Assembly: GCA_049325295.1 (NCBI GenBank) | Contig: JBMOMD010000036.1 | Location: 80,656-144,655, forward strand | Direction of reading: 5' to 3' | DNA from: Nitrospirota bacterium | Lineage (GTDB): Bacteria; Nitrospirota; Nitrospiria; 2-01-FULL-66-17 | DNA length: 64,000 nt | In this document: positions 31,560 through 60,003 of the stretch, one piece after another | Numbering within the stretch: position 1 is the first letter of the stretch | Layout: every line of letters starts with the position of its first letter | Translations under genes and position numbers: made by a program | The notes under the pieces: generated by a model | The model's database searches: none | What the model was told of the DNA's origin: nothing | What the model saw: the letters and a program-made list of their open reading frames with translations, nothing else

Positions 31560-31568
31560 GTGCTGGAT

Positions 31569-33573: not shown

Positions 33574-34968
33574 TCACTTTCCGATGCAAAACTTCGAAAA
33601 GATCTCGTTCAGGACATCGTCCGTTGTCACGGTCCCCAAAATTTCGCCCAACGCCTCCACCGCGCCGCGCAGGTCCATGGCGATGCACTCGTGCGGACCG
33701 CGCTCAGCCACTGTTGCGTGGAGGTGAGCGAGCGCGGACTCGGCTCGGTTCAGCGCCTCAACGTGGCGAAGTTTGGTGACGAACGCACCTTCTGTGGTCG
33801 CGACGCCTCCGTTGAGACGAGTCGCGATCTCCTTGGTCAACGTCTCGATGCCTTGGTGCGTATGGGTTGAAAGGGCATGAACCGGCTGCCCACCGAGCGC
33901 TTGGCTGATTGCACTGATATCCGCGCGTTGCGCAAGATCCGCCTTGTTTGCCACCGCGATGACCGAGCGGTCCTTTAATTGGGCCAGCACCGCGTGATCG
34001 TCATCCGCCAGCGGCTCCGAGCCGTCAAACATCGCGAGAATCAGGTCCGCGCCCGCGACCGCGTCGTTGGTACGGCGGATGCCTTCGACCTCCACGGGGT
34101 CTGCCGTGCGTCTCACGCCAGCCGTATCCGAGAGCCGAACAGTAATCCCGCCAAGGTCTGCCGCTTCCTCGATCGTATCGCGCGTGGTCCCCGGAATCGG
34201 CGTGACGATCGCGCGGTTCTCGCGCAGCAACACGTTGAGCAAGCTGGACTTGCCCACATTGGGCCGGCCCGCGATCACCACCGACGCGCCTTCGCGCGCG
34301 ATGCGGCCGCGATCCGCGGTGGCGAGCAAGCGCCGAATCTCGCGTCGGGCTTCGTCCACCGACACGGTCAGCGCTTCGCGCGGCAAGAACTCCAGGCCTT
34401 CCTCGGAAAAGTCGATACTCGCCTCGATCTCCACCAGCAGCCCCACGAGGCGCTCTTGGAGAGGGCGGATCGCGGCGGATAATCCGCCCCGCAGTTGCGC
34501 CACGGCCGCGCGCGCGCCCGCGTCGCTCTGCGCGCGGATCAGATCCATCACGGCTTCGGCTTGCGCGAGGTCGATCCGGCCGTTCATGAACGCGCGTCGC
34601 GTAAACTCCCCGGGCTGGGCGAGCCGAACGCCGGGCGCGAGCAACAGGCTCATGATCCGCTTTAACACGTGGGGGCCGCCGTGGCACGAAATCTCCACCA
34701 CGTCTTCGCGCGTGTAACTCTTGGGCGCGCGCATGAGCGTCACCAGCACTTCGTCGACGATCCCATTATGGGATTCATCGATCGCGTGACCGAACGCCAC
34801 GTAGCGGTCTTCGAGCGATTTGAGCGATTGGTTCGATTGCAACCGCAGCACGCGATCCGCGGCGGCGACGGCGCCCGGGCCCGAGAGGCGGATCACGCCG
34901 ATCGCGGCTTCGCCCGGCGCGGTCGCGATCGCGCAGATGGTGTCAGACGGGAGTGTGCGCTCCGGCAT
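33574..34968 (-). CDS. mnmE: tRNA modification GTPase MnmE (TrmE)
   Basis: G-domain GRPNVGKSSLLN, DTAG, NKAD, and the C-terminal CIGK motif. Confidence 0.95.
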   Translation of the reverse strand: MPERTLPSDTICAIATAPGEAAIGVIRLSGPGAVAAADRVLRLQSNQSLKSLEDRYVAFGHAIDESHNGIVDEVLVTLMRAPKSYTREDVVEISCHGGPHVLKRIMSLLLAPGVRLAQPGEFTRRAFMNGRIDLAQAEAVMDLIRAQSDAGARAAVAQLRGGLSAAIRPLQERLVGLLVEIEASIDFSEEGLEFLPREALTVSVDEARREIRRLLATADRGRIAREGASVVIAGRPNVGKSSLLNVLLRENRAIVTPIPGTTRDTIEEAADLGGITVRLSDTAGVRRTADPVEVEGIRRTNDAVAGADLILAMFDGSEPLADDDHAVLAQLKDRSVIAVANKADLAQRADISAISQALGGQPVHALSTHTHQGIETLTKEIATRLNGGVATTEGAFVTKLRHVEALNRAESALAHLHATVAERGPHECIAMDLRGAVEALGEILGTVTTDDVLNEIFSKFCIGK

Positions 34969-34980
34969 CGGAACCCTCGG

Positions 34981-38244: not shown

Positions 38245-39132
38245 GTGTACCGACGTGACGCCACTCCCAAGCCTTTACCGAACAGCACCGACGGATGGGA
38301 AAGGGAGGGTGGCGTGAGGCATCGTGGGTTGGGTCTGGTAATCGGATTACTGGTGGTCTGGGGCATCACGGCGTCGGGGCCGGCGCACGCGGGGGTCTTG
38401 GCGACGGAAATCGCGCAAAAATCCGAAGACGTGTACCCGGGGCAGGATCAGACCGCCAAATTGACGTTCACGATCAAAGACTCCAGTGGCGGAGAGCGCA
38501 AGTCCGTGCTGCGGCGGTACTGGAAGAACTATCGCGGCAAGAACGGATTGGACTTCAAAGTCCTTGTGTTCAACGAGTACCCTCCGGACGCCAAGGGCAG
38601 TTCCTTCATGCTCTGGGCCTATGACCCGAAAAGCGGGAAACCGGCTGATCGCTGGTTGTATATCCCGATTCTGAGCAAGGTGAACAAGCTGGCGAACAAC
38701 GCCGAAACCGGAGGCATCGCCAGTTCCGATTTGAACCCGAACGACATGGTTTCTCGTCCCGTGGACCGCGACACCCACAAGCTGCTCGGAGAGGAAACCG
38801 TCGGGAACCGGTCGTATTACATGATTGAAAGCACGCCGATCAAACCCGATCCGGCCTATAACTACGGCAAGGTGGTGAAGTGGATTACCAAGGACACCTC
38901 GCTGAAAGAGCGCGTGGATTACTACGATCTCGAGGGCAAGTTGCTCAAAACCCAATACATTACCTGGAAACCGGTCAAAGACGCCTGGGTATGGGAGAAG
39001 GTGGTCATCAACAATGCGCAGACCGGCTCGGAAACCTACCTGAGCATCAATGACATCAAAACCGACACCGGCATTCAAGACTCGTTCTTCAGTGACCGCA
39101 CGATGAAGAAAGGGATCGACAGCCTCCCATGA
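38245..39132 (+). CDS. LolA-like outer-membrane-lipoprotein-sorting-type periplasmic protein (LolA_like/DUF1329 fold)
   Basis: Signal peptide RGLGLVIGLLVVWGITASGPAHA followed by an all-beta domain of about 250 aa with a conserved ...RWLYIP... segment. Its stop overlaps the ATG of the downstream sensor (ATGA). Confidence 0.55.
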   Translation: MYRRDATPKPLPNSTDGWEREGGVRHRGLGLVIGLLVVWGITASGPAHAGVLATEIAQKSEDVYPGQDQTAKLTFTIKDSSGGERKSVLRRYWKNYRGKNGLDFKVLVFNEYPPDAKGSSFMLWAYDPKSGKPADRWLYIPILSKVNKLANNAETGGIASSDLNPNDMVSRPVDRDTHKLLGEETVGNRSYYMIESTPIKPDPAYNYGKVVKWITKDTSLKERVDYYDLEGKLLKTQYITWKPVKDAWVWEKVVINNAQTGSETYLSINDIKTDTGIQDSFFSDRTMKKGIDSLP

Positions 39133-40955
39133 CCGCATCGGGCCCCCAGCGGTCTGCTCGCCTCGGGCTGTTTCGGTGGCGACCGCGTCTCAAGGCCCGA
39201 CTCGGCCTCTTTATTCTCACCGCCGGCGTGCTGTCCGGCGTGGTGACGCTGGGCGTCATCTATTTTCTCGGCACCGCGACACTGAAAGCCACGATCGGGC
39301 GCAGCTTCGAAGAGTTGGCGTCGTCGACCGCCTCGAACATCGACACGTTGTTCACTCATCATATTGAGGAGGCCCGTCTCCTGGCGTCGGTCCAATCGGT
39401 GTTGACCGTGGTGGAGGAGTCCAACGCGTTTTTCAGCAGCGACCCGATCGAAGACGTCAGGTCGCGAATTCGTGAAATCGACGAGCGATGGCGGACCGCC
39501 CAAGGCGTTGATGCCTTCTTGCTCGAAATTCAGGGGAACCGAGCCACCGCGGCGCTGAAAGAATTTGTCGCACAGACTCCCGATGCAACGCTCTATCAAG
39601 CCGTTGTCGTCACCAATATCCATGGGGCCCTCGTCGCAGCCACCGGACAGCCGGCCCGCTACGATTTTAGCGCGATCCCCTGGTGGATCCATGCGTTCCA
39701 GAACACGGACGGCCGTCCCTTTATCAGCGGCGTGGAGGCGTTGGCCGGCACCGCCGATCCGGTTGTCGTGATCGCCACGCCGATTGTCAAGAATCGACAA
39801 ACCATCGGGGTCTTGGCCTTGGTGGAGCGCGCCGATACCCTGCTGCGGGGAGTGGCGTCCGCCAAGATCGGGAAAACCGATCACACCATGATTCTCACCG
39901 CCGAGGGCGTGGTCGTGTACTGTCCGGTTGCTCCTCTTCAGAGTCATGCTCTCTCGCCGACCTACGTGGCCGCCGTCACCGAGAACCGCAAGGGGTGGAT
40001 GGCGACGCGCGAGGACGTGCACTTTGCGGGGCGTGAGGCCCTCAGCGGGCACGCGCCGGTTGAGCTGACGCAGCGACTCGGCCCCGACAACTTCGGCGGC
40101 CGGCCGTGGTTCGTGGTCACCAGCCAAAATCCCGCGGAAAGTTACGCGCCCATTTATACCCTCTTGCGCTGGATCGGCGTGGCCGGGGTGGCCGGCACGC
40201 TGATCTTCGTGCTGATGGGATCGCTGATCGCCCGTCGCATCGTGCGGCCGATCCAAACCTTACAGGAAGGCGCCGACCTGATCGGGCAAGGGAACCTCAA
40301 CCACCGAATCGAGGTCGCCACAGGTGATGAGATCGAGGATCTGGCGAACCAGTTCAACAAGATGGCTCACAAGCTCAAACTGTTTTACATAGGGTTGGAG
40401 GAAAACGTAAAAGAGAAGACGTGGAAGATCGAACATCAAAATAAGGAGCTCTCGATCTTGTACGCCATCGCCGCCACGTTGAATCAATCGCTCCCCATCC
40501 GAGATCTCCTTGACCAGACGTTGCAGAAAATGCTGGACGTGATGGAGGCCGATGGTGGACTCATTTGGATGGCGCAACCGCCGTCCGGGTCTTCACCGAT
40601 TACCGCCACCAAATTGCCGACCCTGTCGCCCGCGCAAATGAGCAGTTTGATCGAACTGATCCACCACATCAGCCTTCAGATTCGACGGACCGGCGACCTG
40701 TGGGCCACCGAGAACTTGGCCGTGGATGATCGTATCGACTCGGTCCGGTCTGGAGATCCCGGTTTTATCTCCCTGGTCGGTATCCCGTTACGATCCCGCG
40801 ATCACGTGCTCGGAATACTCTTTTTATTGTATCGGGATATCCGGGCGCTCACGTCGCGGGAGGAGAAGCTCCTGGGATCGGTCGGCAGCCAGATCGGCGT
40901 GACCATCGAGCACAGCACCACGGCGCACGGCCTGGGGGCCACCTCCCAGCCCTGA
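39129..40955 (+). CDS. Membrane sensor with periplasmic Cache-like domain, HAMP and C-terminal GAF domain; no recognisable kinase, cyclase or DNA-binding output
   Basis: TM1 LFILTAGVLSGVVTLGVIYFL. A periplasmic region of about 270 aa. TM2 LLRWIGVAGVAGTLIFVLMGSLIA. HAMP (IVRPIQTLQEGADLIGQGNLNHRIEVATGDEIEDLANQFNKMAHKL). GAF (LDVMEADGGLIWMA...LVGIPLRSRDHVLGILFLLYRD...LGSVGSQIGVTIEH). Confidence 0.7.
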   Translation: MTASGPQRSARLGLFRWRPRLKARLGLFILTAGVLSGVVTLGVIYFLGTATLKATIGRSFEELASSTASNIDTLFTHHIEEARLLASVQSVLTVVEESNAFFSSDPIEDVRSRIREIDERWRTAQGVDAFLLEIQGNRATAALKEFVAQTPDATLYQAVVVTNIHGALVAATGQPARYDFSAIPWWIHAFQNTDGRPFISGVEALAGTADPVVVIATPIVKNRQTIGVLALVERADTLLRGVASAKIGKTDHTMILTAEGVVVYCPVAPLQSHALSPTYVAAVTENRKGWMATREDVHFAGREALSGHAPVELTQRLGPDNFGGRPWFVVTSQNPAESYAPIYTLLRWIGVAGVAGTLIFVLMGSLIARRIVRPIQTLQEGADLIGQGNLNHRIEVATGDEIEDLANQFNKMAHKLKLFYIGLEENVKEKTWKIEHQNKELSILYAIAATLNQSLPIRDLLDQTLQKMLDVMEADGGLIWMAQPPSGSSPITATKLPTLSPAQMSSLIELIHHISLQIRRTGDLWATENLAVDDRIDSVRSGDPGFISLVGIPLRSRDHVLGILFLLYRDIRALTSREEKLLGSVGSQIGVTIEHSTTAHGLGATSQP

Positions 40956-46297: not shown

Positions 46298-46494
46298 ACG
46301 TCTCTGCCCCACGTGGACGAGCGCTCGGGTGATGAACCCCGCCAAACCCTGCGCCAAGCGCCCCCGAAAAGCCCGCGTATTCTACCGGAGCCCGAAACGG
46401 TTTGTCAAAACCAAGCAGTGCTCGGCCGCGAAAAACGCGTGGCGTCCATCGCCGGGTTGACCCGCTCCGATCCACGGCTATCCTTAGGGCACCC

Positions 46495-47973
46495 ATGATT
46501 CCACAACCCGCCTCACCGCAAACGCTCCGCGAGCCGGTCGAACACGATCTGCGGCAAATTGAACGACGCGAGTGGCAGTTGTGGGCGCTCACGCTCACCT
46601 TGCTCGTGGCATCGGGCGGAGTCACCGTGCTCCTGGCGTACCTCCTCGCGCAGACCGAGTCCGATCAACCGAATCTGTCTCGGCTCATGGCCACGCGTGG
46701 ACTGCCGGGTTTGGTCGTCCTCATCGGCATCTTTTGCGCCTACGTGCTTCACACCCGCGCCACCTTCGGGCGGATGCGGATGCTTTTCCAGAAACAGGCC
46801 ATGCGCGACTCCCTCACCGGCCTGTTCAATCGCCGGTATTTCAACGAACGCATGGGCGACACCTTGCTCCGCGCCGATCACACCGAAGGAATATTCGCCA
46901 TCTTGTTGTGTGATCTCGATCACTTCAAAGCCTTGAACGATACCCAGGGACATCAGACTGGGGACGAGGTGCTTCAGGAAGTCGGTAAAGCCGTTCTGGA
47001 AGCCACGCGTGGAGCGGACTTGGTGGTCCGATGGGGCGGAGACGAGATTCTCGTCGTGCTCACCAGGACGACGCGCGACGGGGTGATCACCGCGGGCGAT
47101 CGCATCCGCAAAGGCGTCGCCCTGGTCGGGGAACGGCGCCGGATTCCGCTCGACGTGAGCATCGGCGCCGCGTTGCACCCCGAGCATGGTCGCACCATCG
47201 AGGACCTCGTCCGCCTCGCGGACCGCGCGCTTTATATCGCCAAACGCGGTGGGGACAAAATCCATATCGGGGAGGAAGAATACCAATTGGACGACCACAC
47301 GGTGCAAACCGTGTTTCAACCGGTGGTTGACCGAACGTCCGGCGAAGTGTTGGGTTATGAAGCGTTAAGCCGCGACCCCCTTGGCAAGCTCAGCGTCGGC
47401 GAGCTGTTCCGCCGGTATCAGGCGGTGGGACAACTCCACGAACTGAAGTGTTTGTGTTTCCACGTCCAGCTTCGGGCCGCCGCCAGCGCGGGGCTCCGGC
47501 GCGTCTTCATCAACGTAGATTTTGCCGTCCTCGATCACCTGCACGTCGTCCCCAAACCCCCCGATATCGAGGTGGTCCTGGAAATTTCGGAAGCCGAAGC
47601 CTTGCACGACGTGGAGCGCCATCTCGATACCACCAGCGCCTGGCGCGCCGCCGGCTACAAATTCGCGATCGACGATTTCGGCGCCGGGTTCATTTCGCTC
47701 CCCTTCGTGGCGCGTCTGATTCCGGATTACATCAAACTGGACCGCGCCACGATTGTTCAGGCCGGAGCGTCCCGCCAATTCTTGACGTTTCTCCGCGACC
47801 TCGTCCTCGCGCTGCGCAACTACTCCAAGGAAGGCATCATCGCAGAAGGGATCGAAACCGCGGACGAACTCCAGGTCGTTCGCGACCTCGGGATCAGCCC
47901 GGTCCAAGGCTACTTGGTGGGCAAACCCGAAGCGTTGAAGGCACCCGCGACTCGCGACCGCCGCGCGGCGTAG
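46495..47973 (+). CDS. Membrane-anchored GGDEF-EAL protein (c-di-GMP cyclase/phosphodiesterase)
   Basis: Two N-terminal TM helices, GGDEF domain (RYFNE...RWGGDEILVV) and EAL domain (EALSR...AIDDFGAGF...EGIET). The start is assigned to the ATG at 46495; the 46402 alternative is not excluded. Confidence 0.8.
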   Translation: MIPQPASPQTLREPVEHDLRQIERREWQLWALTLTLLVASGGVTVLLAYLLAQTESDQPNLSRLMATRGLPGLVVLIGIFCAYVLHTRATFGRMRMLFQKQAMRDSLTGLFNRRYFNERMGDTLLRADHTEGIFAILLCDLDHFKALNDTQGHQTGDEVLQEVGKAVLEATRGADLVVRWGGDEILVVLTRTTRDGVITAGDRIRKGVALVGERRRIPLDVSIGAALHPEHGRTIEDLVRLADRALYIAKRGGDKIHIGEEEYQLDDHTVQTVFQPVVDRTSGEVLGYEALSRDPLGKLSVGELFRRYQAVGQLHELKCLCFHVQLRAAASAGLRRVFINVDFAVLDHLHVVPKPPDIEVVLEISEAEALHDVERHLDTTSAWRAAGYKFAIDDFGAGFISLPFVARLIPDYIKLDRATIVQAGASRQFLTFLRDLVLALRNYSKEGIIAEGIETADELQVVRDLGISPVQGYLVGKPEALKAPATRDRRAA

Positions 47974-49905: not shown

Positions 49906-50664
49906 TCAAGCGGCGGCGGGCAACGACGACTCGTCGTCCCCACGACCACGGGACCGGCGGTCGCCGTTTCGGCGATCCTGGGTGCGCGGATTCAGGGGAA
50001 GCGACACCACGAACGTGGTTCCTCGACCGATCACCGACTCCACGGAGATCGTTCCGCGATGTTCTTCGACGACTTGGTGGCACGTCAACAGTCCCAGACC
50101 ACTGCCTTCGTGGCCTTTGGTCGTGAAAAACGGGGTAAACAGTCGTTCGAGATTTTCTTCCGAGATCCCCACTCCCGTGTCGGTGACACGCAGTTCCACG
50201 TGCGGCGTTGATCGAACCGTTGTGGCGCGGCTTGAAACCGTCAGCGTCCCCCCGGACGGCATGGCTTGAATCGCGTTGAGCATCAGGTTCAGGAACACTT
50301 GCTTCATGCGCTCCTGGTCCAGGTGAACCGGCCCCAGCGACGTATCCGGTTTCACTTCGATCGACACGCCCTTGGTGCGGGCCTGCGAGGTCAGCAGCAC
50401 CGCCATCTGCCCAAGCACGGCGTTGAAATCCACGGCCTCAAATACCGACGCGGACTCGCCCGTAAACTTAGAATACGTCAAGAGCTGACGAATCAGCCCC
50501 CGGATCCGCTCGACTTCCTTCACCGTCACCTGATACAACGTGCCCCAGTATTCGGAATCCTCGGACGTCTCCCGGCGTTTGGCCGGGAGCATTTGCAAAA
50601 AGGTTGAAATCGGCACCAAGGGATTGTTGATCTCGTGCGCGAGGCCGGCGGCCAGGGTCCCCAC
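49906..50664 (-). CDS. Histidine kinase core (HisKA plus HATPase_c) lacking its own sensor or N-terminus; in frame with the upstream receiver ORF across a single TAG
   Basis: H-box GLAHEINNPL, N-box LNLMLNAIQAM, G-boxes DTGVGI and GSGLGL. The ORF begins with GTG two codons after the receiver's TAG, in the same frame. Confidence 0.7.
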   Translation of the reverse strand: MGTLAAGLAHEINNPLVPISTFLQMLPAKRRETSEDSEYWGTLYQVTVKEVERIRGLIRQLLTYSKFTGESASVFEAVDFNAVLGQMAVLLTSQARTKGVSIEVKPDTSLGPVHLDQERMKQVFLNLMLNAIQAMPSGGTLTVSSRATTVRSTPHVELRVTDTGVGISEENLERLFTPFFTTKGHEGSGLGLLTCHQVVEEHRGTISVESVIGRGTTFVVSLPLNPRTQDRRNGDRRSRGRGDDESSLPAAA

Positions 50665-50670
50665 CGCGCT

Positions 50671-51144
50671 CTACCGATTGGCCCGCGCCACCCGTTTCAG
50701 GGTTTCGATTTTTTCTCCGTGAAGTCGTTCTCGTTCTTTGACGAGCACGTACCGCTCAATGCCGTCTCGAAACGCCATCTGCACCTCGCGCTCGTCGTAC
50801 GGCTTGGCCAGATAGCGGGAGACATTCCCCACATTGATCGCGTCCACCACGCTTTCCAGATCGGAATAGGCGGTCAACAGCATGCGCACCGTGTCCGGGT
50901 AGTTGGCCCGAACTTGCGCCAGAAATTGCGTGCCCGTCATATCGGGCATGCGTTGGTCCGAGAGCACCACCGCCACGTCCCGTTGCGCCAAGATCTCCAG
51001 TCCCGCTGCGCCGCTGGGCGCGGTCAGAATCGTGAAGTCACGCCGAAACTGCCGCTGCAAGGTCTCGATCGCGTAGGGTTCGTCATCCACGTACAGGATC
51101 GGATAGGCCCGGTAGTCCAAGTTCTCGAACAACGGTTCACTCAT
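50671..51144 (-). CDS. Single-domain response-regulator receiver (REC) protein; possibly the N-terminal part of a REC-HK hybrid interrupted by an in-frame stop
   Basis: Phospho-acceptor context ILYVDDEP...VVLSDQRMPDMTG...KP. The C-terminal helix ...LKRVARANR runs into TAG, then SAVGTLAAGLAHE of the next ORF. Confidence 0.8.
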   Translation of the reverse strand: MSEPLFENLDYRAYPILYVDDEPYAIETLQRQFRRDFTILTAPSGAAGLEILAQRDVAVVLSDQRMPDMTGTQFLAQVRANYPDTVRMLLTAYSDLESVVDAINVGNVSRYLAKPYDEREVQMAFRDGIERYVLVKERERLHGEKIETLKRVARANR

Positions 51145-51153: not shown

Positions 51154-54100
51154 TCACGCGGCCTTTGATAAACCACTTGCTACCGGAAGGACCACCGTGA
51201 ACTCCGCGCCCTGACCCGGCTCGCTGCGCACATCGATCCGGCCTCCGACATCCTGAATAATCTGATAACTGACCGAGAGCCCCAACCCGGTCCCTTTGCC
51301 CACGGGTTTGGTGGTGAAAAACGGCTCAAACAGCCGTGCCATGTGCTCGGGTTTGATGCCCGGTCCCGAATCCCGCACCGAGACGGTCACCGTGTGCTCA
51401 TGATCCCGCGATTCGACCCAAATCTCTCCGGTCGCGCCGATCGCCTGAACCGCATTTTGAAGCAGATTCATCCACACCTGGTTGAGTTTACCAGGTACCG
51501 CGAAAACCGCCCGCGTCGACTGCAGATCGGCGTGGACCACCAAACCCCGTCCCGCCATCGGGTGGATCAGGCTTAACGTAGATTCCAATCCGTCTTGCAC
51601 CGAGCACTCGATCTTCTGATTCTGATCCTTTCGGACAAACGCCTTCAGTTGACCGACAATTTCTTCCGTGCGCGTCACGCCGTTCTTCACGATTCCCAAT
51701 GACGCGTCCACGTCTTCTACGGAATCAACCGGCGTCCGGTCCTGGGGTAACAACGGCTTCAATTCCGCCCAGGCCCGCTGCAATACGATAAGACTATTCT
51801 TGGCAAAGCTGATCGGGTTGTTGATTTCGTGCGCCATGCCCGCGACCAACAGGCCGAGGCCGGCCATCTTCTCAGATTGAACCAACTGCGCCTGCGTATT
51901 TTTCAGTTCAGTCAGCGTCGCCTCCAACGCCTCATTGCGCTGTTGAATCTCCCGCTCCAATCGACGCAGCTCCAACAGCGATTTGATCTTGGCTCGCAGC
52001 TCTTGGGCGTTGAACGGTTTGGTCAAATAGTCGTCGGCCCCGTGCTCCAATCCCTCGATCTTCATCGCCATGTCGGCGCGAGCCGTGAGCAAGATAATCG
52101 GGATGTGCTTGGTCCGCTCGTCCCCGCGAATCGCTCGACACAACTGATACCCATCCATCTCCGGCATCATGACATCGGAAATAATGAGGTCCGGGAGTGC
52201 CTGGACCGCGACACCAACGCCCTCTCGACCGTTGGACGCCTTGAGCACCCGATAGTCGCCCTGTAATTCAAACGCGATGAACTCACGCATGTCCGGGTTG
52301 TCTTCGACGATCAAGACCTGTCGACCATTAGCGGGAGAGAAGCTCGGCTCGGGCGCGACCGTCGGTTCCGTTGACACCCCGCTTAGATGCCGCTCCGCGG
52401 CAACGTGCAGTTCGCGGGTCCAATCGTTCGTCGGTGCGGCTCCATCCGACTCCTGAGGAGCTTGCTCCTCAGTGGACTCATCGTGAGGCGCTTCAAGGAG
52501 CAACGGCAGCGTCACCGTAAACGTCGATCCACGCCCGGGTTCACTGTTCACGTTGATCCGCCCACCGTGAAGCTCCACGATTTCCTTCGCAAGGGCCAAG
52601 CCGATACCCGTTCCCTCATACCGGCGACTCGTCGTAGCGTCCACCTGTGAAAATCGCTTGAACAGTTTCGGTAAGTCGCTTTCTGAGATGCCGATACCCG
52701 TATCCATGACCTGCACCTGAAGCTGTCCCTCCGCCGACCGTCCCCATCGAAGGGTGACCCGGCCACCAGAGTTGCTGAACTTGATTGCGTTAAACAGCAA
52801 GTTCAAGACGACTTTTTCCAAACGATCGGGGTCGAAATACGATCGCTCCGGCAACTGCGACGCTTCTTCGCCAATTAGCTCGATGTGCTTTTTCTCGGCC
52901 ATCGGTGCAACCGAGGCGATGAGTCCACGAAAAAATGCCCCGATGTCTCCTGGCCGAAACTGTAGTTTCATGCGGCCCGCATCGAGTTTCGTGAGGTCGA
53001 GCAAGTTGTTGATTTGTTTGAGTAGGCGTAAACCATTCTGGTGCATTACGGACACATGCCGTCTCACCGACTCCGGAAGCGGTGTACCCTCTTCTTTGAT
53101 CAGGGACTCAAGCGGTGCAAGGATCAACGTGAGCGGCGTTCGCAACTCATGGCTCACCGCAGCGAAGAACTTAGTCTTCAACTCGTCCAACTCTTGGAGC
53201 TTTCGATTCGAGTCCTCAAGCTCCTGCGTCCTAAACTGAACCTTCTGTTCGAGAGAGTCATATAGCAACGAATTCTGGACGGCGATGGTAGTTTCAGCTC
53301 TTAACGCCAACAGAAAGTCGAGATCCAAACGGGTGTATCGGCTCAGATTCTCCTTCTCTCCGAGCACAATGACCCCAATCAGAGTCTCTTCATTCGTCAG
53401 TGGCATCGCGACTTGCGCATGGTGACGGATAAAGAACGGTTGATAGGCCGCCGGATCATCACTTTGAACGACACGCTGATTGGCCGCTATACGCTCCAAA
53501 AAGGCCTGCTCCTCTCCGGTAAATCCTCCCTCCCTTGTACGTAGGAATCGCGTGTCTTTGACATAAAGAGTCTCTCCTATGGTCCGGAGGGTCCGTGTAA
53601 TCAGTTCTCCAAAGCTCTTAATTGCCGAGATTTCCTGGACGAAACGCTGCAATTCATCCAGCATATCGAACTTCCGTCGCTGAAAATAGTGATCGACATA
53701 CGGCTGTACAACGCGGGCATACACGAGCATCAGTAGCAAGAGGGTGGCGAGAATGATATAGCTCGCTACTGGATGACTAAGGAGCCACGACCGGAGCCCC
53801 GCGAATAGCGCGACGATGGGAACGACTACAATCGCCGACGTCGCAAGCCAGAGCGCCGTCTTATGAACGACGGTTTTCACATCAAATGCGCCGTGCTGAA
53901 CAATTGCAAATCCCAGGATAGCGGTATATCCAATTTCAAAAATATAATAAAAAGGAGGCCCAGCCGATCCAATAAGGAAGACAAAGAGCGCATATAAAAT
54001 CACCGCCGTGAACCCGAGCCCGAAAGCAAAAAGCATGTATTGTAATTGAACGCGTTTTGTTCCAGTGCTTGATCGATATAGTGTGATTAGGCGATACGTT

Positions 54101-54555
54101 CCATAAGCGACTCCAAAGAGAAGATACAACGCAAAGAGTGGAAATGCCGGCCCAGGAATTTCGAGCATTGATGTTTCTGCGAACTGCAGATCCGACACAA
54201 CAAAGGGAGTCAGGACAAGAATTGCCATGAAAGGCGTGGCAACACTTAGAATTCTTCGAATATTCTTTGGAGGGGTCTTCTCCTCGCCGAGGGCACAATA
54301 AAAGCAAACATTGAAATAAACGAAAAAGACGCCGCCTAAAAACGATATTCGGTCTAAAGTGAGGGCCAGAAGATCGGGTCGACCGTAGAGTATGAGGAGA
54401 TCGCTCGCGTTCCAGAACGCGACAGACAAGTTAAACAAGCCAAAGTTTCGATTAATAGAATTCCTGTGGTCCTTCGACCAAACAAAGAGACCTGACGTCG
54501 CACATGAGACGAGACCTGCGATCGCAAAGGCGATTCGAACGTCAACTGGGGACAT
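51154..54555 (-). CDS. Large hybrid sensor: N-terminal multi-TM (about 7-8 helices) domain, GAF, HisKA/HATPase, REC, then a second HisKA/HATPase
   Basis: TM region 1-290. GAF. H-box AAVSHELRTPL with G-boxes. REC (LIISDVMMPEMDG). Second H-box GMAHEINNPI with second G-boxes (DSGPGI, GTGLGL). The 5' third of the gene is visibly lower in GC. Confidence 0.85.
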   Translation of the reverse strand: MSPVDVRIAFAIAGLVSCATSGLFVWSKDHRNSINRNFGLFNLSVAFWNASDLLILYGRPDLLALTLDRISFLGGVFFVYFNVCFYCALGEEKTPPKNIRRILSVATPFMAILVLTPFVVSDLQFAETSMLEIPGPAFPLFALYLLFGVAYGTYRLITLYRSSTGTKRVQLQYMLFAFGLGFTAVILYALFVFLIGSAGPPFYYIFEIGYTAILGFAIVQHGAFDVKTVVHKTALWLATSAIVVVPIVALFAGLRSWLLSHPVASYIILATLLLLMLVYARVVQPYVDHYFQRRKFDMLDELQRFVQEISAIKSFGELITRTLRTIGETLYVKDTRFLRTREGGFTGEEQAFLERIAANQRVVQSDDPAAYQPFFIRHHAQVAMPLTNEETLIGVIVLGEKENLSRYTRLDLDFLLALRAETTIAVQNSLLYDSLEQKVQFRTQELEDSNRKLQELDELKTKFFAAVSHELRTPLTLILAPLESLIKEEGTPLPESVRRHVSVMHQNGLRLLKQINNLLDLTKLDAGRMKLQFRPGDIGAFFRGLIASVAPMAEKKHIELIGEEASQLPERSYFDPDRLEKVVLNLLFNAIKFSNSGGRVTLRWGRSAEGQLQVQVMDTGIGISESDLPKLFKRFSQVDATTSRRYEGTGIGLALAKEIVELHGGRINVNSEPGRGSTFTVTLPLLLEAPHDESTEEQAPQESDGAAPTNDWTRELHVAAERHLSGVSTEPTVAPEPSFSPANGRQVLIVEDNPDMREFIAFELQGDYRVLKASNGREGVGVAVQALPDLIISDVMMPEMDGYQLCRAIRGDERTKHIPIILLTARADMAMKIEGLEHGADDYLTKPFNAQELRAKIKSLLELRRLEREIQQRNEALEATLTELKNTQAQLVQSEKMAGLGLLVAGMAHEINNPISFAKNSLIVLQRAWAELKPLLPQDRTPVDSVEDVDASLGIVKNGVTRTEEIVGQLKAFVRKDQNQKIECSVQDGLESTLSLIHPMAGRGLVVHADLQSTRAVFAVPGKLNQVWMNLLQNAVQAIGATGEIWVESRDHEHTVTVSVRDSGPGIKPEHMARLFEPFFTTKPVGKGTGLGLSVSYQIIQDVGGRIDVRSEPGQGAEFTVVLPVASGLSKAA

Positions 54556-54653
54556 ATTGACTGGTTACCGCATACACCGCACTGCACCCTTGCCTCACCG
54601 GGACCAACCGAGCTCCCCTTTCCCGCATTATCAATTATTAACTGCCGCATGAA

Positions 54654-56294
54654 TTATAGCAGGCCGTTCAAAGACTCAACTGTTTCAAAAAGAGGAGTGC
54701 CTCTCATTTCATCGAACGCCTGTAGCGCTCTCTCAATGTCGTCCGACGAATGCGCCGCTGACATCGTCAGCCGTATGAGGGCTTCGCCTCGTTTCACGGC
54801 AGGGCGAATAAACGTATTGACGTGAATGCCGCTTTTTTCAAGTCGTTTAGTCATTTCGTACGCGACATGTTCATGCCCCACTCGTATCGCAATAATGGGA
54901 GACTGCCCACCGACTGGGTGGTACCCCAGCGCCTCAAGGCCGGATTTCATAGTTGTGACATTTAACCAAAGCCGCTCCCTTAGATAGCGTTCCGTACGAA
55001 TAATCCGCAGCGCGGTGAGGGCACCAGCCGCCATCGCTGGGGGTAATGCAGTCGTAAAGATAATACCTCGGGACATGTGCCGCAGGTAATCCGACAGATG
55101 CTGTTCACAGGCTATAAATCCGCCGGGGCTCGCGAGTGCCTTGCTGAACAGCCCCAGGTATATATCTATCTGGCCCTCGAGGCCAAAGTGTTCCGCTGTC
55201 CCCGCGCCAGTCGGGCCAAGGAGTCCGAACCCATGTCCGTCATCTAGCATAATCGGGGTTCCGTTTGCCGTCGCTATGGCCTTTATTTCAGGGAGTGAAC
55301 CGAGATCTCCATGCGTGCTGTAGACGCCCTCCACCAAAATCAATGTTCGGGGGGTATCGACCTTGAGAAGCTTCCTCTCAAGATCTTCCGCCGAATTATG
55401 GCGAAACCGTAAGAGCGTGGCTCCGCTTGCCACGCAGCCGTCTATCATACTTGCATGAACCTTTTCGTCAGCCACCGCGGCGTCTCCTTTTCTCAGGAGA
55501 CACGAGAGAACAGCGAAGTTTGCGAGGTATCCGCTCGGGAAGACAAACGCTGCCTTGGCACCTACAAACTCTGCCAGTTCCGCTTCCAGTTGTTCGTGGA
55601 TAGGGTTCGTGCCGTTGACCGCGCGCGAGCCTGTCGCATGGGTTCCATACTTGCGTACAGCCTGAATGACGGCTTCTTTGACGCGGCCGTCATGCGATAA
55701 ACCAAGGTAATCTTTTGACCCAAATGACACCAGCTCGCGACCATCCATGATGACGCGCACCGCAGAGATCCCCTCGCTGCGCCGGCAGACCGTCGAAATC
55801 TGGTCCCACGCATGCGCCCGGGCCGCAAATGCAATCGACTCGGCAAAGATGTCCGCCTTTCTCCGTCTCTCTCGCAACCTCTTATTCTCGATGCCAGTGG
55901 CATCCAGCAGCCGTCTCTCCGCTTTACGACGGCAACGCATCAGTCCTGGGGATAAGCCGCTTATAAATGTATGGACCTTTCGCCGACCATCCTCTTCAGG
56001 AAATGCAATTTCCCCACCATATGCCATCGTATTCGGGTCGACACCTTGCCTATGAAGAATTTTGATCCTCACATGAGCCGAACGGCTATCAGGCAAAATA
56101 AGGTCCGCTTCTTCTTCAGTCTGGTCAAAGCCAGGTCCCATTCTGAAGGTAAGACCATATCGGCCGATGTTCCAGACTTGTCCGGTAATCTTCGTACCCG
56201 CAACGCCGGTCATTCGCACCATCACAGGAACAGGCATGTGCTCGACTCCATATCGAGGATGCCTGCGTCTCTGAAACGTGAGCTGAGATTCCAA
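54654..56294 (-). CDS. PilZ-like N-terminal domain fused to a class-II PLP-dependent alpha-oxoamine synthase (BioF/Kbl/SPT/CqsA family)
   Basis: The N-terminal roughly 140 aa have RRRHPRY (RxxxR) and a degenerate DxSxxG (NIGRYG). The AOS domain has FGSKDYLGLS, the PLP-lysine context STHGDLGSL...GLFSKAL, and glycine-rich loops. It lies 98 nt upstream of the hybrid HK on the same strand. Confidence 0.8.
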   Translation of the reverse strand: MESQLTFQRRRHPRYGVEHMPVPVMVRMTGVAGTKITGQVWNIGRYGLTFRMGPGFDQTEEEADLILPDSRSAHVRIKILHRQGVDPNTMAYGGEIAFPEEDGRRKVHTFISGLSPGLMRCRRKAERRLLDATGIENKRLRERRRKADIFAESIAFAARAHAWDQISTVCRRSEGISAVRVIMDGRELVSFGSKDYLGLSHDGRVKEAVIQAVRKYGTHATGSRAVNGTNPIHEQLEAELAEFVGAKAAFVFPSGYLANFAVLSCLLRKGDAAVADEKVHASMIDGCVASGATLLRFRHNSAEDLERKLLKVDTPRTLILVEGVYSTHGDLGSLPEIKAIATANGTPIMLDDGHGFGLLGPTGAGTAEHFGLEGQIDIYLGLFSKALASPGGFIACEQHLSDYLRHMSRGIIFTTALPPAMAAGALTALRIIRTERYLRERLWLNVTTMKSGLEALGYHPVGGQSPIIAIRVGHEHVAYEMTKRLEKSGIHVNTFIRPAVKRGEALIRLTMSAAHSSDDIERALQAFDEMRGTPLFETVESLNGLL

Positions 56295-56441
56295 AGGTCC
56301 TCCTTATTCTCGACTTCTCTAGAAACGCACCACCCGTGTTACGGCTCTCGTCGCTCTTTTTTGTATCGCAACTGATCTTCTGGGCGCTTTACTTGCTGGA
56401 AGCCTGTGATATGTTGATTGCGTTCTCTTCGGGAGGATTCC

Positions 56442-57692
56442 ATGAGTCGGTTATCTTGCCTACGACTATTCATCGGATTCGCGTTAGCGCCCGTAATCGT
56501 CATGAGTGTAACTTCCGTCACGGCCTATGCTGGCGCATTTGCTATCGATGAACAGGGGACAGCGGCGATGGGGCAGGCTAATGCGTTCGCTGCGCAGTCC
56601 GATGATCCGAGCGCGCTCTTCTACAATCCGGCGGGAATTGGGCAACTTCAGGGGACGCAAGTTAGTTTAGCGACAACTCTAATCGCCCCCTCCACCACCT
56701 TCGAGAACGCCGGTTCAGGACAATCTACCAGTACCAATTCAGTGTTATTTTATCCCACGACCTTTTACGCTGTCCACGAAATTAGTAACGCTCTACACGT
56801 CGGTCTCGGCGTATTTACACCATTTGGACTGTCCACGGAGTGGCCCTCGGATTGGGAGGGCCGTTATGTAACGACGTTTTCCGAAATCAACACGTATTAC
56901 TTCAATCCCAATATAGAATGGAGCCCCGGCCCACGGCTTCATCTGGCCGTTGGAATTAGTTATGTTCCGTCGTCTGTGACGTTCAGGAACAAGCTTGACC
57001 TCAGTAGCATCCCATTGCCGGATGGCGAATCCGAGGTCACGGCAGACGGAGACGGGTGGGGCTACAATTTAGCCGCACTCGCGACCCTTCCCGGGGAAAA
57101 TACCATCGGCGTCTCGTTCCGCAGCGCGGTGAAAATCGATTATTCTGGAGACGCAACGTCTGAACCCTCTGCGGTTCTTGGACCTCCGCAAGCCGTCCGT
57201 TCATCGCTAACTTTACCCCCTATGCTGACGGTCGGCGTCGCCAATCATACGATTGAGGCCCTCACTCTAGAGGCAGACCTCCAATGGGTGGGGTGGTCTA
57301 AAATCCAGTCGATTGATATCGACTTTGTGAATCCCGCAGCTCCAGATGTCACCACGGTGTATAACTGGCAGGACAGCTATTCGCTCCGGTTCGGAGCCGC
57401 GCATTCGATCGGTCCGGTGACGTTGCGAGCCGGCTATGCCTATGACATCAGTCCAGTTCCACCTGATACGATCGATCCCTCCATACCGGACTCCGATAAA
57501 CACGCCTTCACGCTTGGGGGAGGGTACCGCCTTGGAAGGACGACGATCGATATGGCGTATATGTTCATTCGCTCGAACGATCGGAGCGTCGACAATACGA
57601 TTACACCTGTGGCGGGACCACCGTTCAGCCAGCAAGGCAAGTATTCGGCGCGAACTCACGAACTGGGCATCGGCGTCACGTACCGCTTTTAG
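56442..57692 (+). CDS. FadL/TodX/OmpP1-family outer-membrane hydrophobic-compound channel
   Basis: Signal peptide, the N-terminal hatch motif GAFAIDEQGTAAMGQANAFAAQSDDPSALFYNPAG, and the beta-barrel C-terminus ...GIGVTYRF. GGAGG RBS. Confidence 0.75.
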   Translation: MSRLSCLRLFIGFALAPVIVMSVTSVTAYAGAFAIDEQGTAAMGQANAFAAQSDDPSALFYNPAGIGQLQGTQVSLATTLIAPSTTFENAGSGQSTSTNSVLFYPTTFYAVHEISNALHVGLGVFTPFGLSTEWPSDWEGRYVTTFSEINTYYFNPNIEWSPGPRLHLAVGISYVPSSVTFRNKLDLSSIPLPDGESEVTADGDGWGYNLAALATLPGENTIGVSFRSAVKIDYSGDATSEPSAVLGPPQAVRSSLTLPPMLTVGVANHTIEALTLEADLQWVGWSKIQSIDIDFVNPAAPDVTTVYNWQDSYSLRFGAAHSIGPVTLRAGYAYDISPVPPDTIDPSIPDSDKHAFTLGGGYRLGRTTIDMAYMFIRSNDRSVDNTITPVAGPPFSQQGKYSARTHELGIGVTYRF

Positions 57693-58665
57693 TTGAATCC
57701 GCCTCGATCGCCTCGATTCTTCGCTGTATACGGTTCATCCCTTCGTCAAATCCGACCGTCGGCTCCCACCGTAACTCCATTCTAGCCCGTTGATTCGAGA
57801 AGTTCTGAGAGGTGCCCAACAACTCTACTGACATCCGGGTCAGCAGAGGGCGGGAGGATTGTTTCCGGACCGCGCCCCAAGCTTCCAACGCCCATCCTGC
57901 GGTATATGCCACCCGGTAAGGGATCTTCGCGCGAACAGGTTTGAGCCCCAACATCATGGCTAATCGATCTGCAAACTCTTTCCACGTTACGCCGAGTCCG
58001 TCTTCGATGTTGTAGGCACGTCCCACTCCGTAAGCCGGTCGGCCAGCCAAGAGCAGCGCAGCAACCAAATTGTCTACGTGGCACAATCCAGCATCGGTGT
58101 TTCCCTTTCCGATGAGGACCATCTCTTTTCGTTTAAGCAGGTTTACGATCTCCGTGACGACTGGCGCTCGATGTCCGTACACGGTCGCCGGGCGAATTAC
58201 CGTCGTGGGCAACCCGCGGCCCGCGAATTCCCATACCAGCTTCTCGGCATCGATCTTCGTGTCTCCGTAGGGCCAACCGCGATACCGAAAGGGAGCGTCT
58301 TCAGTCACGCGCTGTCCCGGATAGCCGTAGATATCAGTGGTGCTGACATGAACGAATTTCGCGACTCCGAGCGCAGCTTCCAGGATGTTTTTAGTGCCAG
58401 TCACGTTGACGCTCCGGAAGATCGCTGGATCACCCCAGTCGGAAACCACCGCAGCACAGTGGAAGACCCTGTCGACGCCTCGGACAGCATCACGAACACT
58501 CGCTGGGTCCGTGATATCACCGATGCATCGTTCTGCTTGTGGCGACACCCAGTGCAGGTTACTCGTGGGGCGAACCAACACTCGCACCTGGTCTCCTACA
58601 TCAATCAACGCATCGACCAGGTGTGAGCCGATGAATCCAGAGGCCCCTGTCACCAGGCTCCTCAC
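57676..58665 (-). CDS. NAD-dependent epimerase/dehydratase-family SDR (extended SDR; 3-beta-HSD-like)
   Basis: Rossmann motif VTGASGFIGSHLV, catalytic Y...K (YGDTK). Its 3' end overlaps the convergent FadL gene by 17 nt. Confidence 0.8.
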   Translation of the reverse strand: MRSLVTGASGFIGSHLVDALIDVGDQVRVLVRPTSNLHWVSPQAERCIGDITDPASVRDAVRGVDRVFHCAAVVSDWGDPAIFRSVNVTGTKNILEAALGVAKFVHVSTTDIYGYPGQRVTEDAPFRYRGWPYGDTKIDAEKLVWEFAGRGLPTTVIRPATVYGHRAPVVTEIVNLLKRKEMVLIGKGNTDAGLCHVDNLVAALLLAGRPAYGVGRAYNIEDGLGVTWKEFADRLAMMLGLKPVRAKIPYRVAYTAGWALEAWGAVRKQSSRPLLTRMSVELLGTSQNFSNQRARMELRWEPTVGFDEGMNRIQRRIEAIEADSTKSGT

Positions 58666-58713
58666 GATTGTCGTCCGCAGAACGAGTGGATGTCCCGTTT
58701 CATACGTTGTCAG

Positions 58714-60003
58714 TCAAAATGTGTGTCCCGCGCTCACGCCAAGCACGTGCGCGGTGGAGCGATAGCTTCCGTTGGCGCGGGCGTCGATGGGGGGTACCGT
58801 TGAATTGGAACTGCTCCCGACGCTGTTCTCCTTGACCCGCTCGAACCACAGGAATTGGTAGCCCACGTCGAGAGTCCACCGGGCCGCAGTGACGCCCACG
58901 CCAACCGACACACCTTGCCGATCCGCATCAGGAATCAGCGGCGTGGCGTACTGGTCGGGAATCGGGGACAGGTCGTAGAGATAGCCTCCGCGCAGGCGCA
59001 TAATCGACGAGAAACGGTACTCGGTACCGATGCTGTATGCCATGACGTCGCGCCAGCCGAACGTCGTCGTCTCTGGAGACAGTCCTCCGGTAAATTGGAC
59101 CTCCATGCGATCTATCGTTGACCATCCGGTCCACGCGGCATCCACTTCAATAGTCCAGTCCGGAGCAGGCCGCATCATCAATCCCGCGCGAAGCGACGGG
59201 GGTAACGTGAGCGCGGTCCGAATTTCACTGTCGGGAAAACTCGTTGCGAACAACGCCGGAACCGTAAAATCCGCCCACCCATCGTTGATCTCGACGTTGA
59301 CGCGGCTTCGATAACTCAGTCCGAGTTGCCACCGATCGGATGGCACCACCAGCACGGCGGCATTATAGCCGAACGAGCGCGCGTCGCCCGACAAGGTGAC
59401 CGCGCCTTCCCCGGCGCCGGGAAGCCCGACGGCCATATTGAGGGCTCGGTGTTCCGACAATTTGACTTGGAAATACTGGACACCCACGGCCGCGGTTAAC
59501 CCCTGGGTCGCGCGCCACGCGATCACGGGGTTGACGGTCGTGGCTTTAATCGTCGCGTCAATGACCTGAAAGCGGCCATCCCAGTCACCCGGCCACTTTG
59601 TGGACAGCCCGAACGGCGTGAAGACACCCAGCCCCACGCTGAAATTGTTGCCAAGCGGGGTGGTTACGTACAGTTGCGGCAATACGTAGTACCGCTCTCG
59701 TTCGGTTGTCGCATTGCCGGTTGCGCTCGGATCGTATTCCGCGTGGGGACGAAGCACCGTCACGCCGATAAGCGCGGTGGTTGAGGCGAGTTGCGAGATA
59801 CCAGCAGGATTGTAATACAGGGCCGAGGGATCATCCGCCTGCGCGGTAAATGCCGAGCTGCGGGCCATCCCGCCGGCGCCCTGCGCCGTGATCGCGAACC
59901 CTGATGCGTACGCCGGAGTCCATCCGCCGGATAACGTCGTCATACCGAAGACCATCAACGGTGGAGCCATCGACTTCCACCACGCGGGTTCCCGACACGT
60001 CAT
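58714..60003 (-). CDS. Second FadL-family outer-membrane channel (paralogue)
   Basis: The motif GFAITAQGAGGMARSSAFTAQADDPSALYYNPAG parallels the first FadL, and the C-terminus is ...SAGHTF. The true start may be the downstream ATG (MAPPLMVFG...). Confidence 0.7.
   Translation of the reverse strand: MTCREPAWWKSMAPPLMVFGMTTLSGGWTPAYASGFAITAQGAGGMARSSAFTAQADDPSALYYNPAGISQLASTTALIGVTVLRPHAEYDPSATGNATTERERYYVLPQLYVTTPLGNNFSVGLGVFTPFGLSTKWPGDWDGRFQVIDATIKATTVNPVIAWRATQGLTAAVGVQYFQVKLSEHRALNMAVGLPGAGEGAVTLSGDARSFGYNAAVLVVPSDRWQLGLSYRSRVNVEINDGWADFTVPALFATSFPDSEIRTALTLPPSLRAGLMMRPAPDWTIEVDAAWTGWSTIDRMEVQFTGGLSPETTTFGWRDVMAYSIGTEYRFSSIMRLRGGYLYDLSPIPDQYATPLIPDADRQGVSVGVGVTAARWTLDVGYQFLWFERVKENSVGSSSNSTVPPIDARANGSYRSTAHVLGVSAGHTF

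Follow-up and report, generated by a model that had tools for sequence, protein, structure and literature searches.

The window analysed here, a 64,000-nucleotide stretch of contig JBMOMD010000036.1 from a metagenome-assembled genome of a Nitrospirota bacterium, carries a rare and previously undescribed gene pair that, judged from its sequence, probably makes and senses a lipid-like amine signal. The first gene encodes a PilZ domain fused to an alpha-oxoamine synthase (AOS) resembling serine palmitoyltransferase (SPT). The second encodes a hybrid histidine kinase with a HisKA_7TM membrane domain and a weak GAF domain in its N-terminal half. Two FadL-family outer-membrane channels and a short-chain dehydrogenase/reductase (SDR) lie across a divergent spacer. 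This five-gene arrangement had been described in an earlier note on the same DNA, and it was confirmed here: the coordinates of the kinase, the synthase, both channels and the SDR are exact, as is the 98-nt same-strand spacer between synthase and kinase. Literature searches found no paper describing a PilZ-AOS, PilZ-BioF or PilZ-SPT fusion, nor do aminotransferases figure in a large survey of PilZ architectures. HisKA_7TM appears in the literature searched only in censuses of archaeal two-component systems, with no ligand assigned.

The fused synthase and its sensor partner

The PilZ-like N-terminus that the earlier note had recognized in the synthase is real. Residues 1-173 of the window protein alone score below the Pfam cut-off for PilZ (PF07238; 16.5 bits, E 0.011, cut-off 22.5), but 13 of 13 family N-termini matched the model at E<=1, with a best E-value of 1.5e-11, and many homologues carry precomputed PF07238 matches. 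The family conserves the PilZ motifs QRR[KR]HPR (RRxxxR) and [DN]xSRYG ([DN]xSxxG). The window protein has RRRHPR (R10...R14) and NIGRYG, with glycine at the position of the motif serine that is found in 12 of 14 relatives. In an AlphaFold model, residues 21-110 (pLDDT 79-90) form a six-stranded beta-barrel followed by a C-terminal helix. A Foldseek search with the modelled residues 1-189 returned PilZ domains for all of the top 32 PDB matches (probability 1.00), including BcsA, P. aeruginosa PilZ, MrkH, Alg44, VCA0042 and YcgR. Because every homologue matched the profile, the motifs are conserved and the predicted fold matches PilZ structures, the N-terminal domain is assigned as PilZ.

A conserved arginine-rich linker joins PilZ to the AOS domain (RRKxERR...ERRxxDRRRxFGIF in the family, RRKAERR...RERRRK in the window). 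Residues R122, R123, R127, R128, R139, R143 and R144 are invariant in the family alignment; model confidence in this region is low (pLDDT <50 over residues 123-170). The TTG start codon at 56294 is preceded by a strong Shine-Dalgarno sequence (AAGGAGGA) at 4-5 nt spacing and agrees with the N-termini of the homologues. The identical deposited protein MFZ5876867.1 (527 aa, on a 277,690-bp contig) is annotated from Met20, which omits the RxxxR motif (window positions 56235-56294, minus strand). Two further proteins combine PilZ and the arginine-rich linker with other enzymes, a beta-ketoacyl synthase in P0224 and a LuxD-type acyl transferase plus methyltransferase in P0137, which suggests a wider class of acyl-lipid enzymes gated by cyclic di-GMP (c-di-GMP).

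Fusions of the Nitrospirota type are very rare. They form about 15 clusters among 5.8 billion proteins, and other searches gave two representatives among 1.84 billion proteins, one locus among 185,579 species genomes and three loci in JGI metagenomes; across all collections searched there are about 18 sequences in total. The N-terminal profile also detected PilZ-linker-AOS fusions of 520-575 aa in Ca. Desantisbacteria, Endomicrobiales and Elusimicrobiota, and a delta proteobacterium has one too (locus L084). The latter had been considered as a standalone AOS with a sensor nearby and turned out to be a PilZ fusion; it is 748 aa long (L084, 9518-11764), with about 220 extra residues C-terminal to the AOS domain.

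Paired loci were obtained from Nitrospirota, the delta proteobacterium, Endomicrobiales and unclassified metagenome contigs. Downstream sequence was available for 16 distinct fusion genes on 19 contigs, the window among them, and each of the 16 is directly followed by a gene for a polytopic membrane sensor, usually with a GAF domain. Fifteen of these sensors have a kinase as output and one has HD-GYP, and in several pairs the synthase and sensor genes overlap. Missing synteny between synthase and kinase in relatives, which the earlier note had named as evidence that would speak against its proposal, was thus not what was found. Further support for a dedicated pairing is provided by tblastn searches with eight sensor sequences, which gave matches in fusion loci only and none in the stored flanks of about 153 standalone-AOS loci. 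Since the arrangement recurs in every relative examined, it is not due to chance; the pairing of synthase and sensor is an ancient one, strongly conserved in different phyla and confined to the fused form.

The Nitrospirota loci share the order fusion, kinase-REC-kinase gene, REC-kinase gene. Other loci combine the fusion with a HisKA_7TM-GAF kinase, a sigma-54 regulator and a REC-HD-GYP protein (L093), with HisKA_7TM kinases (L094, L095), with a methyltransferase and an SDR followed by a transmembrane (TM)-GAF kinase (L091), with a TM-GAF-HD-GYP protein (7TM) as the partner (L092), or with a TM-GAF-HisKA protein and a REC-kinase (L084). One metagenome contig (L003, 1-17887) encodes a double-PilZ synthase of 744 aa that lacks the catalytic lysine. 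Its neighbours are multi-kinase genes, upstream a MASE8 kinase and a HisKA_7TM kinase and downstream a HisKA_7TM kinase, with an SDR, a REC-kinase and a FadL gene beyond.

In the window kinase, Pfam searches placed HisKA_7TM at residues 12-226, a weak GAF domain at about 349-426, HisKA at 460-527, HATPase at 575-685 and REC at 747-858; a second module with an AHEINNP-type dimerization and histidine phosphotransfer (DHp) domain and a HATPase spans residues 881-1128. A hydropathy scan gave 8-9 membrane helices within residues 8-285, with loops shorter than about 15 aa and no periplasmic domain. The earlier note had proposed a CqsS-type receptor. A hybrid kinase with many membrane helices and no periplasmic domain is indeed present, but the helices number 8-9 rather than 7-8 and the sensor, HisKA_7TM with GAF, appears to belong to a different Pfam family. 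The sensor region matched Pfam HisKA_7TM and NCBIfam LIC10906_fam only, profile matches that may set it apart from CqsS. The kinase-REC-kinase layout and the further REC-kinase gene had not been foreseen.

Intact orthologues of this REC-kinase (399-410 aa) follow the kinase gene in L001, L003, L004, L006 and L086. The window copy contains an in-frame TAG at 50671-50673 (minus strand) before the H-box (RVARANR*SAVGTLAAGLAHEINNP), where the L004 homologue has leucine. A nonsense mutation or an error of the assembly would account for the TAG, and the two halves of the protein could be made separately. The C-terminal tail (49906-49980, minus strand) is conserved and arginine-rich, with DRRNGDRR in the window and ERRKVERR, NRRRDGRR and DRRRNARR in homologues (L003, L004, L006, L001). 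This tail is similar to the RRxxxR motif for c-di-GMP and to the PilZ-AOS linker, and it may represent a shared docking or c-di-GMP-bridging motif.

Type of synthase and co-divergence with the sensor half

The AOS domain of the window reached none of the NCBIfam equivalog cut-offs. The bioF model TIGR00858 scored 352 bits (cut-off 426), the SPT models 350 bits (CFB; cut-off 640), 341 bits (beta; cut-off 500) and 262 bits (alpha; cut-off 670), and Kbl 313 bits (cut-off 460). The CqsA-type model PRK07179 was the lowest among the AOS-family models (215 bits, cut-off 428). Among solved structures, the SPT of Sphingobacterium multivorum (3A2B/8GUH) gave the best match with 284 bits, followed by Sphingomonas SPT (2JG2; 248 bits), Thermus BioF/Kbl (228 bits), cysteate acyltransferase (207 bits), Kbl (about 204 bits), E. 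coli BioF (199 bits) and CqsA (113 bits). The SPT structures align with the domain end to end, with the catalytic lysine and the His/Asp/His/Arg site in register. A neighbor-joining tree of the AOS domain, with SPT, BioF and Kbl as references, unites the Nitrospirota fusions in one clade (100/100). This clade belongs to a broad group that also includes uncharacterised standalone enzymes and the SPT of S. multivorum; the SPT of Sphingomonas and the two E. coli enzymes, BioF and Kbl, branch outside the group. A single origin of all PilZ-AOS fusions was not recovered in the tree (0/100). The N-terminal profile nevertheless links the fusion groups across lineages (E 7e-15 to 4e-4). By these profile and structure comparisons, the domain is SPT-like and neither CqsA-like nor BioF.

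These scores bear on two readings of the locus. Were synthase and kinase true orthologues of CqsA/CqsS (or LqsA/LqsS), an alpha-hydroxyketone autoinducer would be made and sensed. An AOS-family enzyme adjoining a polytopic hybrid kinase without a periplasmic domain is what this reading predicts. However, membership in the CqsA family, which the earlier note had suggested, is contradicted both by the CqsA-type model, whose score is half its cut-off and well below those of bioF and SPT, and by the structure matches; moreover, the sensor region has the family matches given above and no others. The PilZ fusion, the GAF domain and the kinase-REC-kinase layout are not known from CqsA/CqsS, and we consider orthology very improbable. 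The alternative offered in the same note, an SPT-like lipid locus, fits the closest relatives of the enzyme better.

It is scarcely credible either that a housekeeping enzyme, BioF of biotin synthesis or Kbl of threonine catabolism, lies beside a kinase by chance. TIGR00858 is the top-scoring NCBIfam model, and JGI annotates many relatives as 8-amino-7-oxononanoate synthase. That score is nonetheless below the cut-off, the E. coli enzymes fall outside the whole tree group, and no bio or tdh genes occur in the 64 kb. Clustering with BioF together with nearby biotin genes, which would have spoken for this reading, was thus not observed. A PilZ fusion, a conserved sensor partner and members without the catalytic lysine are, in addition, incompatible with a housekeeping role. 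On sequence grounds, CqsA orthology and the BioF reading are effectively excluded.

Comparison with related loci revealed that synthase and sensor do not evolve at the pace of their surroundings. Identity of the window to L004 and L006 is 80% for RNase PH (L004 only), 74% for the REC-kinase and 71% for the kinase core, and drops to 52% for the AOS domain, 36-39% for the sensor half and 25-33% for PilZ. Likewise, the FadL-SDR-FadL flank is 55-77% identical between the window and L099, against 46% for AOS and 40% for the sensor. Over 21 locus pairs, divergence of AOS correlated with that of the sensor half (r = 0.85) more than with that of the kinase core (r = 0.42), and L004 and L006 combine a window-type kinase core with the other synthase type. 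The GC content at third codon positions (GC3) is 0.69 in the kinase core, 0.52 in the sensor half, 0.54-0.57 in the synthase and 0.59 in FadL1. The same dip is seen in L004, L088, L001, L099 and L100, which rules out a recent horizontal import into the window alone as its cause. Synthase and sensor half therefore form a low-GC unit that changes in concert while its flanks are conserved, as is typical of a specificity cassette; the sample is small (about 10 loci), and allelic exchange is deduced from the discordant identities and the GC3 dip.

Proposed mechanism and alternative readings

The reading that we favour, albeit tentatively, is a c-di-GMP-gated synthase for a lipid-amine signal (a long-chain aminoketone or amino-alcohol) with the adjacent 7TM-GAF kinase as its cognate receptor and FadL for passage across the outer membrane. 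The cytoplasmic SPT-like domain would catalyse the condensation of an amino acid with a fatty-acyl thioester to a long-chain alpha-aminoketone; its sequence points to no particular amino acid as substrate. PilZ would bind c-di-GMP and place this condensation under its control, up or down, as in cellulose and alginate synthases. The neighbouring SDR would probably reduce the ketone to the amino-alcohol. The hydrophobic product would partition into the membrane, where it would be the ligand of the HisKA_7TM/GAF sensor half, and the kinase would feed a phosphorelay of the kinase-REC-kinase protein and the REC-kinase. The FadL channels would let the product across the outer membrane.

Genes that fit these steps recur beside the fusions. 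In nine Nitrospirota loci (L003-L006, L086-L089, L099), the gene upstream of and divergent from the fusion is a FadL1 homologue of 53-84% identity, and a homologue of 28% identity has the same position in L093; FadL2 homologues occupy the equivalent position in L004, L088, L099 and L100. The extended SDR of the window has orthologues in L087 and L099 (70% identity), and L084 carries a similar one close to its fusion gene. Further, an adh_short SDR occurs in L003 and L091, and a methyltransferase in L091. The SDR that the earlier note had included in the module is thus present beside the synthase, but in its extended form it is conserved only in the closest relatives. The GGDEF-EAL gene of the window, also correctly noted before although with a start at 46495 instead of 46402, has an orthologue of 72% identity directly upstream of the PilZ-synthase gene in L090. 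The proposed link to c-di-GMP is based on the fold and motifs of PilZ, on this GGDEF-EAL gene in L090, on REC-HD-GYP in L093 and on 7TM-GAF-HD-GYP in L092.

Several observations weigh against this reading. The window AOS has the Schiff-base Lys385 (codon 55140-55142) as well as H280, S326, D351, H354 and R508, aligned with BioF, Kbl and SPT. The clade of the window enzyme has, however, Leu382 where 48 of 48 standalone and 28 of 28 other fused enzymes have threonine, a residue that in BioF is a ligand of the phosphate of PLP (pyridoxal phosphate). In addition, it has Gly353 for alanine in the DDAH motif, and these two changes may impair the activity of the window enzyme. The Schiff-base lysine itself is replaced by alanine or glycine in 11 of 18 Nitrospirota-type members, a loss that the earlier note had not anticipated, so that catalysis is not the sole conserved role of the family. 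As these proteins keep the other residues of the PLP site (His, Ser, Asp, His, Arg), the partner kinase, FadL and sometimes the SDR, a non-catalytic function is under selection in part of the family, and it could be the main one. The PilZ domain of the window has glycine for the motif serine and scores below the Pfam threshold, the REC-kinase has a premature stop in this assembly, and no acyl carrier protein (ACP) or acyl-ligase gene is near the locus. Finally, sensor domains generally evolve faster than kinase cores, so the co-divergence is possibly in part trivial.

The lysine-less members lead to a different reading, in which PilZ-AOS is a ligand-binding regulator or pseudoenzyme that docks on the adjacent 7TM-GAF kinase, with catalysis dispensable or vestigial. 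Such an adaptor would report c-di-GMP via PilZ and perhaps an amine/PLP adduct or an acyl-thioester via the AOS fold. In its favour, the lysine-less proteins are diverse (54-67% mutual identity) while the rest of their PLP site is invariant and the partner genes are kept. That the synthase and sensor genes overlap or are tightly spaced suggests that their products are made in stoichiometric amounts, and the arginine-rich linker resembles the RRxxxR-like tail of the REC-kinase. There is also a precedent in HapZ of Pseudomonas aeruginosa, a PilZ adaptor that binds the REC domain of the kinase SagS (10.1101/2020.02.11.943704); there, as by gene pairing in the locus, a PilZ protein is tied to a multi-domain hybrid kinase. 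HapZ is, however, a single PilZ domain acting on REC, whereas the PilZ domain of the locus is fused to a 370-aa enzyme fold, and the part of the kinase that diverges in step with the synthase is the membrane/GAF half rather than the REC or catalytic domains, where a HapZ-like adaptor would bind. Moreover, the lysine is kept in 28 of 29 fusions from other phyla and in the whole window clade, as it is in 48 of 48 standalone relatives. SDR and methyltransferase genes beside or between the pair are sensible only if a small molecule is made, and FadL channels would have no role for a purely cytoplasmic adaptor. Overall, we regard the adaptor as somewhat unlikely. A compensating lysine was sought in the lysine-less clade and not found: the only two clade-specific lysine columns (window positions 244 and 293) look like ordinary variation, with lysine there in other aligned AOS proteins as well.

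Alternatively, a c-di-GMP-regulated SPT could start the synthesis of a bulk sphingolipid-like or amino-lipid component of the envelope, with the SDR as 3-keto reductase, FadL as lipid conduit and a kinase that monitors or regulates the lipid state of the envelope instead of being the receptor of a diffusible signal. The closest solved relatives of the enzyme are bacterial SPTs, and that of S. multivorum falls within the same broad clade of the tree. The type of the SDR, 3-beta-HSD/OleD, is that of lipid ketoreductases, long-chain hydrophobic molecules are the cargo of FadL proteins, and the fusions of PilZ and linker to a beta-ketoacyl synthase and a LuxD-type acyltransferase are in line with a general control of acyl-lipid enzymes by c-di-GMP. 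On the other hand, the window and the related loci contain no ceramide synthase-like, ACP, acyl-ACP synthetase or head-group genes, and loss of the catalytic lysine in most Nitrospirota members is unexpected for a bulk-lipid enzyme. Housekeeping lipid synthesis would not usually show such strict pairing with a single sensor family or such cassette-like co-divergence, and the family is very rare. We consider this explanation unlikely.

The signal-synthase and adaptor readings might also hold for different members. In a still more doubtful proposal, the PilZ-synthase and the membrane/GAF half of the kinase would form an exchangeable lipid-amine specificity cassette, comparable to the pherotypes of peptide signalling, with two allelic states in Nitrospirota loci that are otherwise conserved. 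Members with the lysine would make the signal under c-di-GMP control, and lysine-less members would be PLP-pocket receptors or regulators that capture an amine ligand as an external aldimine and act on the partner kinase.

Organization of the locus, known systems and significance

The features of the locus are listed below, with amino acid (aa) residues given for domains. Both FadL genes, which the earlier note had rightly placed across the divergent spacer, match Toluene_X over the full profile, carry an NPAG motif and signal peptides cleaved after AYA, and match FadL, TodX and TbuX in the PDB; in FadL2 the signal peptide ends at AYA before SGF, and NPA forms the hatch motif. The SDR carries TGxxGxxG and YxxxK motifs. 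Its top NCBIfam matches are OleD (150 bits) and HpnA (145 bits), both below cut-off, and it is a candidate ketoreductase for a 3-keto-2-amino lipid.

Table. Features of the PilZ-synthase locus in the window
Feature	Position	Strand	Basis
FadL2, FadL/TodX-family outer-membrane channel	58714..60003	-	Pfam Toluene_X E 6e-66
Extended SDR, 3-beta-HSD/OleD-like	57676..58665	-	Pfam Epimerase E 5e-38, 3Beta_HSD E 2e-28
FadL1, FadL/TodX-family outer-membrane channel, divergent from synthase	56418..57692	+	Toluene_X E 2e-58
Divergent intergenic region between FadL1 and synthase operon	56295..56417		Sequence reading
PilZ-AOS synthase, 546 aa	54654..56294	-	Aminotran_1_2 E 2e-47, residues 187-527
PilZ domain, aa 1-115	55950..56294	-	Motifs, family profile matches, structure model
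Arg-rich linker and N-terminal helix of AOS fold, aa 116-172	55779..55949	-	Alignment, model
SPT-like AOS domain, aa 173-546	54654..55778	-	Profile searches, alignments to solved structures
Synthase-kinase spacer, 98 nt	54556..54653		ORF boundaries
Hybrid kinase, 1133 aa	51154..54555	-	Pfam
Kinase sensor half, aa 1-440, HisKA_7TM and weak GAF	53236..54555	-	Pfam, hydropathy
Kinase core, aa 441-1133, HisKA-HATPase, REC, second AHEINNP DHp-like/HATPase module	51154..53235	-	Pfam, NCBIfam
REC-HisKA-HATPase gene, third in operon	49906..51144	-	Domain search, homologues
Terminator-like hairpin directly after REC-kinase stop codon	49885..49897	-	Consensus match only
GGDEF-EAL protein, loosely associated	46402..47973	+	Domain search; orthologue near fusion in L090

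Because the 98-nt spacer contains no terminator-like site, synthase and kinase genes are probably co-transcribed, and the hairpin behind the REC-kinase gene is the probable end of the operon. Matches in the consensus scans for promoters and terminators were not above chance in the window overall, and no promoter-like match above chance was found in the divergent region. A sigma-54 promoter in that region was considered and dropped (13 matches in the window, 25 expected by chance). A weak sigma-54-like match, GGGCGCTTTACTTGCT (2 mismatches), lies at 56382-56397 (plus strand), 21 nt before the start of the FadL1 open reading frame (ORF), and is not evidence for a promoter.

The remainder of the window consists of housekeeping genes (gap-pgk-tpi, yidC-mnmE-mnmG-parAB); biotin, tdh, ACP and acyl-ligase genes are absent from the 64 kb. 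The yidC-mnmE-mnmG-parA-parB cluster (29151-36627) suggests that the window is near the chromosomal replication origin. A dCache-HAMP-GAF protein of 608 aa (39129-40955, plus strand) has no recognised output domain at its end. A MacB/FtsX-type permease (998 aa) followed by a CrtC/lipocalin-like protein (11402-15524, plus strand) is a possible lipid-handling pair with no evident link to the PilZ-AOS locus.

Among known systems, CqsA/CqsS of Vibrio and LqsA/LqsS of Legionella (PMC3376566) resemble the locus in that a PLP-dependent AOS-family enzyme adjoins a polytopic hybrid kinase with REC and without a periplasmic domain. Those kinases sense the hydrophobic product, a role that is only proposed for the kinase of the locus. 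Unlike CqsA, the locus enzyme is SPT-like and carries an N-terminal PilZ domain and an arginine-rich linker; the sensor is HisKA_7TM with 8-9 helices and GAF, within a kinase-REC-kinase protein, and a REC-kinase gene comes next. The locus also has FadL channels, and most Nitrospirota members lack the catalytic lysine. The locus thus appears akin to CqsA/CqsS in logic without being a member of that family. Bacterial SPTs (S. multivorum, Sphingomonas) are the best solved relatives, and a candidate ketoreductase of lipid type lies beside the locus synthase. In contrast to them, the enzyme stays below the SPT equivalog cut-offs, is PilZ-fused, has no ceramide-pathway genes beside it and is obligatorily paired with a sensor kinase, and its family has either leucine for threonine at a conserved PLP-site position or has lost the lysine.

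In BcsA (cellulose) and Alg44 (alginate), whose PilZ domains are among the top structural matches to the N-terminal model, PilZ is likewise part of the same polypeptide or complex as a biosynthetic enzyme, and product formation depends on c-di-GMP. The enzyme of the locus differs in being a soluble, PLP-dependent enzyme that forms C-C bonds rather than a membrane glycosyltransferase; its PilZ domain is N-terminal, attached through the arginine-rich linker, with c-di-GMP binding putative. In the peptide quorum-sensing loci comQXP of Bacillus and agrBDC of Staphylococcus, the signal gene and the membrane sensor half of the receptor vary together, whereas the catalytic half of the kinase and the flanks are conserved. 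Synthase and sensor half of the locus co-vary in the same manner amid a conserved core and flanks, but the chemistry proposed here is a lipid-amine instead of a peptide, and the comparison covers about 10 loci.

Known c-di-GMP effectors gate polysaccharide synthases, motors and transcription factors. If the proposal is true, a PilZ domain fused to a PLP-dependent lipid-amine synthase extends c-di-GMP control to the production of a small-molecule or lipid signal. Where the partner is a c-di-GMP phosphodiesterase of the HD-GYP type, as in some loci, the system would also feed into the turnover of c-di-GMP itself. For HisKA_7TM, a widespread sensor domain, a dedicated enzyme partner provides a concrete and testable ligand hypothesis. 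The hosts belong to uncultured or hard-to-grow lineages, namely Nitrospirota including Ca. Manganitrophus, Endomicrobiales/Elusimicrobiota, Ca. Desantisbacteria and a delta proteobacterium, and we know of no characterised cell-cell signalling in them. The lysine-less, otherwise intact enzymes are a natural experiment in the conversion of a PLP enzyme into a regulatory pseudoenzyme. Should the cassette with two allelic states prove right, the family would add PLP enzymes to the c-di-GMP effectors as a new class, and it would include a new type of signal receptor, built on a pseudoenzyme.

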